64,000 nt of DNA from Klebsiella phage vB_Kpn_K54_rec1. Shown here one piece after another: positions 59,636-59,942 of the stretch; position 1 is the stretch's first letter; each line of letters starts with the position of its first letter. The stretch is from the sequence record PQ569687.1, one strand, 5' to 3'. Below the pieces are notes generated by a model. That model made no database searches. It was not told the DNA's origin and saw only the letters and a program-made list of their open reading frames with translations. The position numbers and the translations under genes were made by a program.

Positions 59636-59694
59636 TATCTCCTATTTATTCCACAATAGATATAATTAGAGACTACACCACTAAACCAATACTG

Positions 59695-59755
59695 TCAACT
59701 CTAATTATTCCCGATTAGGAATATCTAATTATTCCCGAACAGGAATACAATACTA
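59695..59755. promoter_or_regulatory. tandem operator-like repeats, each an inverted repeat TATTCC-N6-GGAATA
   Basis: ctaattattcccgattaggaatat then ctaattattcccgaacaggaatac: two 27-bp direct repeats, each internally palindromic, in the divergent intergenic region. Confidence 0.5.
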
Positions 59756-59907
59756 ACTTATCATTTAAACTAACTTATGATCTTTAAAAACAATAAAACA
59801 TAAGATCTAAAACAAGATCTTTTACTACAGAGTATAAATACTCTATATAATAGAGTCGGTGACTCGATGAGTTGGATTATCGTATGAAGAAAAGATGATG
59901 TCAAGTG

Positions 59908-59935
59908 TTGACATGAACTTTTTAACGTGTAGAAT
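59908..59935 (+). promoter_or_regulatory. strong sigma70-like promoter (TTGACA-16-TAGAAT) for the rightward operon
   Basis: ttgaca at 59908-59913, tagaat at 59930-59935, preceded by tgt (extended -10-like). Confidence 0.55.
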
Positions 59936-59942
59936 CTAGGTA

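Follow-up and report, generated by a model that had tools for sequence, protein, structure and literature searches.

The 64,000-nucleotide stretch analysed here (the window) belongs to Klebsiella phage vB_Kpn_K54_rec1 (PQ569687.1; Vequintavirinae, Mydovirus) and includes, at positions 59636-59942, an intergenic region separating two divergent gene sets. This region carries inverted repeats with the half-sites TATTCC and GGAATA, and comparison with related phages indicates that the dyad region is a real, conserved cis-regulatory element. On balance we think it probable that two perfect dyads, O1 and O2, and a degenerate third, O3 (Table 1), are operators of a 120-amino acid (aa) winged helix-turn-helix (wHTH) protein that negatively regulates its own operon, wHTH-(T5orf172)-prs-nadV. 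The parts of this proposal carry different weight. That the 120-aa protein binds the dyads is very likely, and that its main effect falls on P_L, the leftward promoter of its own gene, is likely; that this effect is repression we put at about even, its sign being read only from the positions of the sites. Control of the rightward operon by the dyads is unsupported.

Comparative evidence for the proposed operators

A preliminary description of the region had reported two 27-bp direct repeats, each containing the inverted repeat TATTCC-N6-GGAATA. The dyads are exact, as it stated; the repeat unit is 24 bp (59700-59723 against 59724-59747, 92% identical), and the third site, O3, had gone unnoted. 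Two exact copies of TATTCC-N6-GGAATA occur in the window and none in 100 dinucleotide-preserving shuffles of it. The same description had suggested looking for the palindrome elsewhere in the genome, and a scan of the ~143.6-kb composite genome found no further copy, either exact or with one mismatch. The element is therefore local, and a global regulon for the dyads was excluded.

The expectation that the repeats would be conserved in relatives was borne out. In 24 lineages the motif (T)AGTATTG, one or two dyads, a gap of 3-13 bp, TTGACA, a spacer of 16-18 nt, TAnnnT, a ribosome-binding site (RBS) and the wHTH gene follow one another in the same layout, which recurs down to about 30-40% protein identity. 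Over 80-100% DNA identity the half-sites are constant and the 6-bp spacers vary (CGATTA, CGAACA, CGAAAA, CTAACA, CAATCG, CAAAAA). In distant lineages the sequence of the dyad changes and its place next to the -35 element stays: the dyad reads TATACC..GGAATA in Hena1, TATACT..GGTATA in L014, TGTTCC..GGAACA in P0008, TGTCCC-N7-GGGACA in Av-05, TGTSYC..GGGACA in FBKp34, TATGCC..GGCATA in UPEC06 and TGTGTC..GCTACA in phiTE and CR8. Each genome uses one variant across its copies, for example three TGT..ACA sites in P0008 and three TATACC..GGAATA sites in Hena1. Single-dyad hairpins are weak (about -2.5 to -3.7 kcal/mol each, 6-7 bp, AT-rich). Constant half-sites with drifting spacers, copies that change together within a genome and weak hairpins all agree with the earlier view of the palindromes as operator-like. 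The flanking motif (T)AGTATTG, read in the direction of the gene, abuts the distal-most dyad in almost every lineage, homologues of ~30-40% identity included, and is thus better conserved than the dyad itself.

Changes in the two arms of the dyad are coupled, and they are coupled in turn to the protein. Among 32 aligned 18-bp sites, whose arms were scored like a paired helix, positions 2/17 are A:T in 27 and G:C in five, and unpaired in none; cells changed on both sides of the dyad number 9 against 3.4 expected, a value reached in 0 of 500 shuffles. Residue 79 of the protein lies in the motif SEKS[Q/R]PKV, where the predicted recognition helix begins; the 16 lineages with TAT..ATA sites all have Gln at this residue and the eight with TGT..ACA sites all have Arg, so that half-site position 2 is A with Gln79 and G with Arg79 in 24/24 lineages, counts that take no account of kinship. 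Gln-adenine and Arg-guanine are textbook pairings. Six of these lineages were fetched after the rule had been stated and all of them fit, three with Gln (P0005, P0015, P0019) and three with Arg (P0017, P0020, P0023), P0015 obeying it in three of its four half-sites. At least two minimal pairs are available, P0008 against the K54-like relatives and FBKp34 against P0015/P0016.

Gene and sites also travel together. By tblastn the 120-aa gene was found in 73 phage records; the operator half of the intergenic DNA matches 35 phage records, and 35 of the 35 carry the 120-aa gene. Linkage of the wHTH gene to a following Prs-like gene persists in distant homologues, even where the regulators are only ~30% identical.

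The 120-aa protein

The 120-aa protein falls in PHROG 8453 (phrog_8453, E=3.7e-56). It does not reach the Pfam gathering threshold for HTH_36 (16.8 bits, cut-off 25) or HTH_5 (ArsR; 11.7 bits, cut-off 22), and has no MarR match. Its AlphaFold2 model (pLDDT 84.7) consists of an N-terminal beta-hairpin, a long helix, a helix-turn-helix (helices 65-71 and 76-91) and a two-strand wing (strands 95-103 and 109-117), helix 76-91 being the predicted recognition helix. A Foldseek search with this model returned winged-helix proteins only, all with E above 1e-3, the best matches being 4pql_A ('N-terminal domain of DNA binding protein', TMq 0.58), the DnaD N-domain 2v79 (0.44), AbfR2, TFIIE and MarR-family regulators. 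A sequence search of the Protein Data Bank (PDB) gave nothing significant; the matches at E 0.19-0.84 include an ArsR repressor. There are PHROG matches to initiators (phrog_186, 270, 8102 and 428, E=2e-5 to 4e-3), which cover N-terminal parts of profiles of 308-455 positions. The family is very small: 1.8 billion representatives yield 22 clusters at 50% identity, and its members are mostly stand-alone proteins of 120-150 aa. We found no description of this regulator or operator in the literature on rV5, CB7, the NAD-ADPr survey and NARP (the nicotinamide adenine dinucleotide, or NAD, reconstitution pathways considered below).

Promoters and proposed mechanism

Read along the minus strand, the elements stand in the order O2, O1, a 7-nt gap, TTGACA, 17 nt, TAGTCT, a 5-nt gap, O3, AGGAGA and GTG. 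From the conservation of the hexamers we infer that TTGACA and TAGTCT form a promoter, P_L. In an alignment of 17 upstream regions from relatives whose regulators are 41-99% identical, TTGACA is exact in 15 lineages and replaced by TTGACT and TTGACG in the other two; TAnnnT follows 16-18 nt downstream of TTGACA in most, and the sequence of the spacer drifts. The record of FBKp34 annotates the equivalent element as a promoter. Our sigma-70 consensus scan did not list P_L, because its -10 element matches just three of six positions. The strong rightward promoter TTGACA-16-TAGAAT of the preliminary description was found as P_R. About 170 bp separate its -35 element from the nearest dyad centre, and P_R appears to be independent of the dyads.

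In the mechanism that we propose, host sigma-70 RNA polymerase would start at P_L, with its perfect -35 and weak -10, and the transcript would carry the regulator gene, the optional T5orf172 gene, prs and nadV. The 120-aa protein would bind O1, O2 and the weaker O3 as a dimer. As it accumulated it would occupy first O1 and O2, which lie immediately before the -35, and later O3, which covers the start site, and would so damp its own operon by negative autoregulation. Two kinds of site occupy repressor-type positions, namely O3 (centre ~+7.5) and a site in the P0019 lineage that overlaps the -35 and spacer of TTGACC-16-TATAAT. A better O3 exists in relatives: KB57 has TATACC..GGAATA, and in Hena1 the O3 half-sites, TATACC..GGAATA, are those of Hena1 O1 and O2. 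A phased-loop model was rejected, the spacing of O1/O2 to O3 being 59/83 bp in the K54 phage against 66/90 bp in Hena1 and thus not conserved.

A second leftward promoter-like site, TTGACA-17-GATAAT (59904..59876, minus strand; 11/12 match), stands back to back with P_R as a 15-nt inverted repeat, 59890-59922. It is present in KpS8 and PVP-SE1 and not in Hena1.

Cassette exchange

Rightwards from ~59781 the K54 phage shares 98.7-99% identity with KpS8, Mydo, BIS47 and others, which are unrelated to it in DNA sequence on the left. In these phages the gene of the 120-aa protein is replaced by that of a 105-aa wHTH protein, 26% identical to it (a type-B cassette, the K54 form being type A); the 105-aa protein belongs to phrog_8102 (E=7e-36), for which 'replication initiation protein' is a frequent annotation. 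TATTCC..GGAATA is replaced as well, by a tandem GTGCTCAAATTGAGCAT-type repeat immediately ahead of the RBS; this repeat is conserved in pEp_SNUABM_01 (70% protein identity) and more diverged in GAP31. No leftward promoter next to the type-B dyads was listed by the consensus scan. Backbone homology between the cassette types resumes at CAATACT (59748-59754), and the ACTAACTTAT repeats beside it, two copies within 59748-59781 and none elsewhere in the genome, constitute a 29-bp indel. In K23PH08C2, K54-type operators are joined to a PVP-SE1-like rightward half.

These alignments indicate that the regulator, its own promoter and its sites move as one unit, independently of P_R, and this argues against a switch for both operons, as had been proposed. 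The same conclusion follows from the distance to P_R, from the near identity of the P_R half despite a different cassette on its left, and from the recombined arrangement in K23PH08C2.

One candidate family for the wHTH proteins, PF24409 'wHTH-PRTase associated', was rejected: its match is sub-threshold (E=0.001, 19.5 bits, cut-off 27) and confined to the type-B allele, and the papers found for it deal with PRTase effectors in retrons and in toxin-antitoxin systems rather than with operons for NAD salvage. In the record of Salmonella phage NINP13076 (MZ326168.1, 161 kb) there is a type-A wHTH gene at 146545-146901 and also a type-B one at 156955-157263, a co-occurrence that may reflect terminal redundancy or an assembly artefact.

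Alternative explanations

The preliminary description had named a 193-aa wHTH protein, believed to be encoded next to the repeats, as the binder that would switch both divergent operons. This protein does have an N-terminal wHTH (Pfam MarR_2, E=1.2e-5; HTH_36, 4.3e-5) and is encoded in the same operon. The nearest open reading frame (ORF), however, is that of the 120-aa protein, with the 193-aa ORF one gene further left, and the wHTH of the 193-aa protein is fused to a T5orf172 (GIY-YIG-like) domain with a match to phrog_25806/681 'endonuclease'. The gene is absent from KB57, KpS8, Mydo, Hena1, Av-05, FBKp34 and several metagenomic relatives. KB57 lacks it, yet has the 120-aa gene and both perfect dyads; Hena1, Av-05, FBKp34 and the metagenomic relatives likewise keep dyads and the 120-aa gene without it. 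By this distribution the 193-aa gene is dispensable, an optional insert that separates prs from the small wHTH gene, and it looks like a mobile, homing-endonuclease-like insertion because its presence is polymorphic among close relatives. The dyads thus persist where the 193-aa gene is missing, and it is the 120-aa gene that always co-occurs with them and whose recognition helix co-varies. Adding the independence of the P_R half from cassette type and the distance of the dyads from P_R, we regard the earlier model as very improbable. A reading without any trans-acting factor, in which the repeats arose by recent tandem duplication or function as hairpins in DNA or RNA, is scarcely credible. 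The adjacent copies are indeed 92% identical, and the minus strand folds with z = -2.9. Against this, the two copies persist from genus to genus at 80% DNA identity while their spacers drift, the half-sites co-vary with a residue of the protein, and the hairpins amount to 6-7 AT-rich base pairs; O1 and O2, moreover, lie outside the P_L transcript because they are upstream of P_L, and no Rfam family matches the region.

Autoregulation by repression through O1, O2 and O3, the reading we prefer, has to contend with several observations that weigh against it. O3 has two mismatches in the K54 phage and is missing from several lineages. O1 and O2 stand upstream of the -35, not over the core promoter, at a variable gap, and the sign and mechanism of regulation are therefore uncertain; upstream dyads would suit either an activator or cooperative sandwiching of the promoter. 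The second leftward promoter-like site, if active, could read across both upstream dyads. In UPEC06 and similar Vequintavirus relatives the wHTH gene and one dyad are present with no prs/nadV downstream, and the counts behind the residue-79 rule carry no correction for phylogeny. Positive control, in which the protein at -51.5 and -75.5 would recruit RNA polymerase (by contact, for instance, with the C-terminal domain of alpha) and O3 would limit the operon only at high concentration, is rather unlikely but, as activation at low occupancy, a serious alternative. It fits the location of O1/O2 wholly upstream of the -35 in nearly all lineages, the upstream-only sites of several lineages and the weak -10; it sits badly with a -35 that is already perfect consensus and with the repressor positions of O3 and the P0019-lineage site. 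The gap between dyad and TTGACA, moreover, varies by about half a helical turn or more, so that a face-specific activator contact is hard to reconcile with it. A further set of observations against the preferred reading concerns replication. The iterons of the lambda origin are tandem dyads of similar form, and the dyads here might mark such an origin, with an AT-rich stretch between divergent promoters and autoregulation as a side effect. The PHROG matches lead to the N-terminal regions of a 'DnaD-like helicase loader' and a 'replication initiation protein', the fold leads (4pql_A, 2v79) point to initiator N-terminal domains, the dyads have a 24-bp period beside an 83-bp stretch of 78% AT, and a second module in the same genome combines dyads that are not at its gene's promoter with an AT-rich stretch, an AGATCT dyad and ACTAACT repeats. 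The origin of rV5-like phages is, in addition, unmapped and described as unknown (PMC3606486). The 120-aa protein, for its part, is single-domain, without the helicase-recruiting C-terminal part, as is usual in its stand-alone family, and the structural matches never fall below E = 1e-3. The sites number no more than three, with just one in UPEC06, phiTE, P0017 and P0023, and they keep a constant place beside the -35 of the promoter that serves the gene itself. Even homologues of ~30% identity are linked to Prs-like genes, and replication genes lie tens of kb away. We judge an origin quite unlikely, and equally so its fuller form, in which the dyads and a binder resembling DnaD or the lambda O N-terminal domain mark the rV5-like origin, the second module near 2.5 kb marks another, and exchangeable initiator-domain/iteron cassettes lie in AT-rich stretches that separate early promoters.

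The second module lies outside the window, at 2460-2891 of PQ569688.1 (L021). It comprises a 92-aa phrog_8102 wHTH gene (2613..2891, minus) and, at ~2460-2612, two ATGCAAATTTTGC dyads 3' of that gene, an AT-rich stretch and an AGATCT dyad cluster; two copies of ACTAACTA overlap a promoter-like TTGATC-16-TATAGT.

Comparison with known systems

Local regulators of the MarR/ArsR type are a close parallel in organisation: a protein with a single wHTH domain of ~120 aa is encoded at the head of the very operon that it would control, and dyads of ~18 bp in several copies flank or overlap its own sigma-70 promoter. An ArsR repressor is among the non-significant PDB matches and MarR-family proteins are among the weak Foldseek matches. 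Unlike these regulators, the 120-aa protein falls below the Pfam cut-offs, its beta-hairpin and long helix bring it nearer to DnaD/RepA_N-like folds, it has no evident ligand pocket, its host is a virulent phage and its strongest sites lie upstream of the -35. The lambda O, DnaD and RepA_N domains may, to judge from the PHROG and Foldseek leads, have a related wHTH flavour, and the tandem dyads of ~24-bp period beside an AT-rich stretch are a further likeness; they differ in having a C-terminal replication domain, and the small number of sites, the location at the gene's own promoter and the context of NAD metabolism also set our case apart.

NrtR reportedly controls operons of the prs-nadV type, and the resemblance to NrtR, NadR and NiaR, bacterial proteins that regulate NAD salvage, lies in a wHTH protein beside such an operon that it presumably controls through palindromic sites. 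The 120-aa protein, in contrast, has no Nudix, NMNAT or RNK sensor domain according to Pfam, being too short for one, and no sequence similarity was detected. Without a sensor domain metabolite sensing is unlikely, and the protein is at most a functional analogue of these regulators. NrtR and NadR are mentioned in PMC9503650 and PMC13464706. Lambdoid immunity modules offer a likeness of another kind, for there too regulator, promoter and operators are swapped together between genomes, here the otherwise 99%-identical type-A K54 and type-B KpS8/Mydo. They differ in that our phages are virulent, with no lysogeny module, and in that the cassette heads a metabolic anti-defence operon rather than a lysis-lysogeny switch.

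The NAD operon and its significance

The cargo of the leftward operon is NARP1-like: prs and nadV have the gene order and Pfam annotation of the two-gene NARP1 operon (Adps + Namat), and a Prs-like plus Nampt-like operon of phage Bas63 has been shown to be NARP1 (bioRxiv 10.1101/2024.02.11.579819). In FBKp34 (L017, 1-1866) the genes on the divergent side are those of a transporter resembling PnuC and an enzyme resembling NadR, which constitute NARP3, and two NAD-reconstitution pathways thus flank one intergenic region.

NAD reconstitution by NARP1, NARP2 and NARP3 is a recently recognised form of phage counter-defence, and the NARP papers considered here do not address how phages control NARP expression. 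Our comparisons suggest that in Vequintavirinae and Stephanstirmvirinae a NARP1-like prs-nadV operon has a winged-helix regulator dedicated to it that also controls itself. Autoregulation of a wHTH protein through dyad operators is in itself a commonplace mechanism, and this regulator is an uncharacterised member of that class; what is notable is the one-residue/one-base rule, the exchange of cassettes in virulent phages and the position at the head of a NAD-reconstitution operon. The natural variants already spell out a specificity code, in which Gln goes with A and Arg with G at position 2 of the half-site. Together with the two interchangeable cassettes they make the system simple to test, and the system could also be turned into small repressor/operator pairs that are orthogonal to one another. 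That virulent phages exchange the cassette may point to selection favouring regulatory independence when relatives co-infect a cell.

Other features of the locus

The 1.6 kb around 59636-59942 are 100% identical to Klebsiella phage vB_Kpl_K54lambda1.1.1 and the vB_Kpn_K54_rec phages. Gene annotation (Table 1) was taken from PQ569688 and not from the 100%-identical record OY979426, because the annotation of the latter is out of register with its own sequence. In OY979426.1 the labels 'ATPase' and 'thymidylate kinase' fall on the wHTH locus, and nearly all coding sequences are marked as pseudogenes.

Table 1. Positions in the window of the regulatory elements and genes discussed
Feature	Position	Strand	Remarks
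P_L	59670..59698	minus	-35 TTGACA (59698..59693), 17-nt spacer, -10 TAGTCT (59675..59670); candidate promoter, predicted start site ~59663
O1	59706..59723		perfect dyad TATTCC-CGATTA-GGAATA, promoter-proximal; centre ~-51.5 of P_L
O2	59730..59747		perfect dyad TATTCC-CGAACA-GGAATA, distal; centre ~-75.5 of P_L; 24 bp from O1
O3	59647..59664		degenerate dyad TATTCCACAATAGATATA (minus strand TATATCTATTGTGGAATA), between -10 and RBS; centre ~+7.5
RBS of 120-aa gene	59638..59643	minus	AGGAGA; read from sequence; conserved in relatives
CAATACT and repeats	59748..59781		CAATACT (59748-59754), then two ACTAACTTAT(C/G)AT repeats; beside O2
AAGATCT dyad	59802..59821		AAGATCT-AAAACA-AGATCTT (N6 spacer), in the 78%-AT stretch; DNA hairpin z = -3.9
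P_R	59908..59935	plus	TTGACA (59908-59913)-16-TAGAAT (59930-59935); 11/12 consensus match; predicted start site ~59942; predicted to drive the operon from ATG 59961
Small wHTH gene	59273..59632/59635	minus	119 aa (GTG 59632) or 120 aa (GTG 59635); in ORF list; annotated in PQ569688
wHTH + T5orf172 gene	58708-59271/59289	minus	annotated 187 aa, ORF 193 aa; second leftward gene
prs	57911-58711	minus	after the wHTH + T5orf172 gene
nadV	56170-57903	minus	adjacent to prs
107-aa ORF	ATG 59961	plus	first of rightward operon; small ORFs next
Phosphoesterase gene	61185-61778	plus	rightward operon
RNA ligase gene	62286-63263	plus	rightward operon

The AAGATCT-N6-AGATCTT dyad is kept with either wHTH cassette, and also in GAP31 and PVP-SE1. 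It is separate from the wHTH/operator cassette and may be the site of a different factor that acts on the shared rightward-promoter half. Within the genome, AGATCT-N4-9-AGATCT occurs in the second module and the 59636-59942 region only. A cluster of GATC sites connected with Dam was considered and rejected, for GATC is not enriched here and most AAGATCTT copies lie within coding sequence; only the arrangement as an AGATCT dyad is special.

A 44-aa ORF at 59770-59904 (minus), annotated in PQ569688 inside the intergenic region, takes as its TTG start the TTGACA of the second leftward promoter-like site. The records of KB57 and P8734 annotate no ORF at this place, and the 44-aa ORF is probably spurious. 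In P0032, a distant member of the wHTH family, T5orf172 is fused to the same type of wHTH in the opposite order. Downstream of the leftward operon, and in the same direction of transcription, six tRNA genes, one each for Tyr, Cys, Leu and Thr and two neighbouring ones for Met, form a cluster at 50010-54919 (minus).

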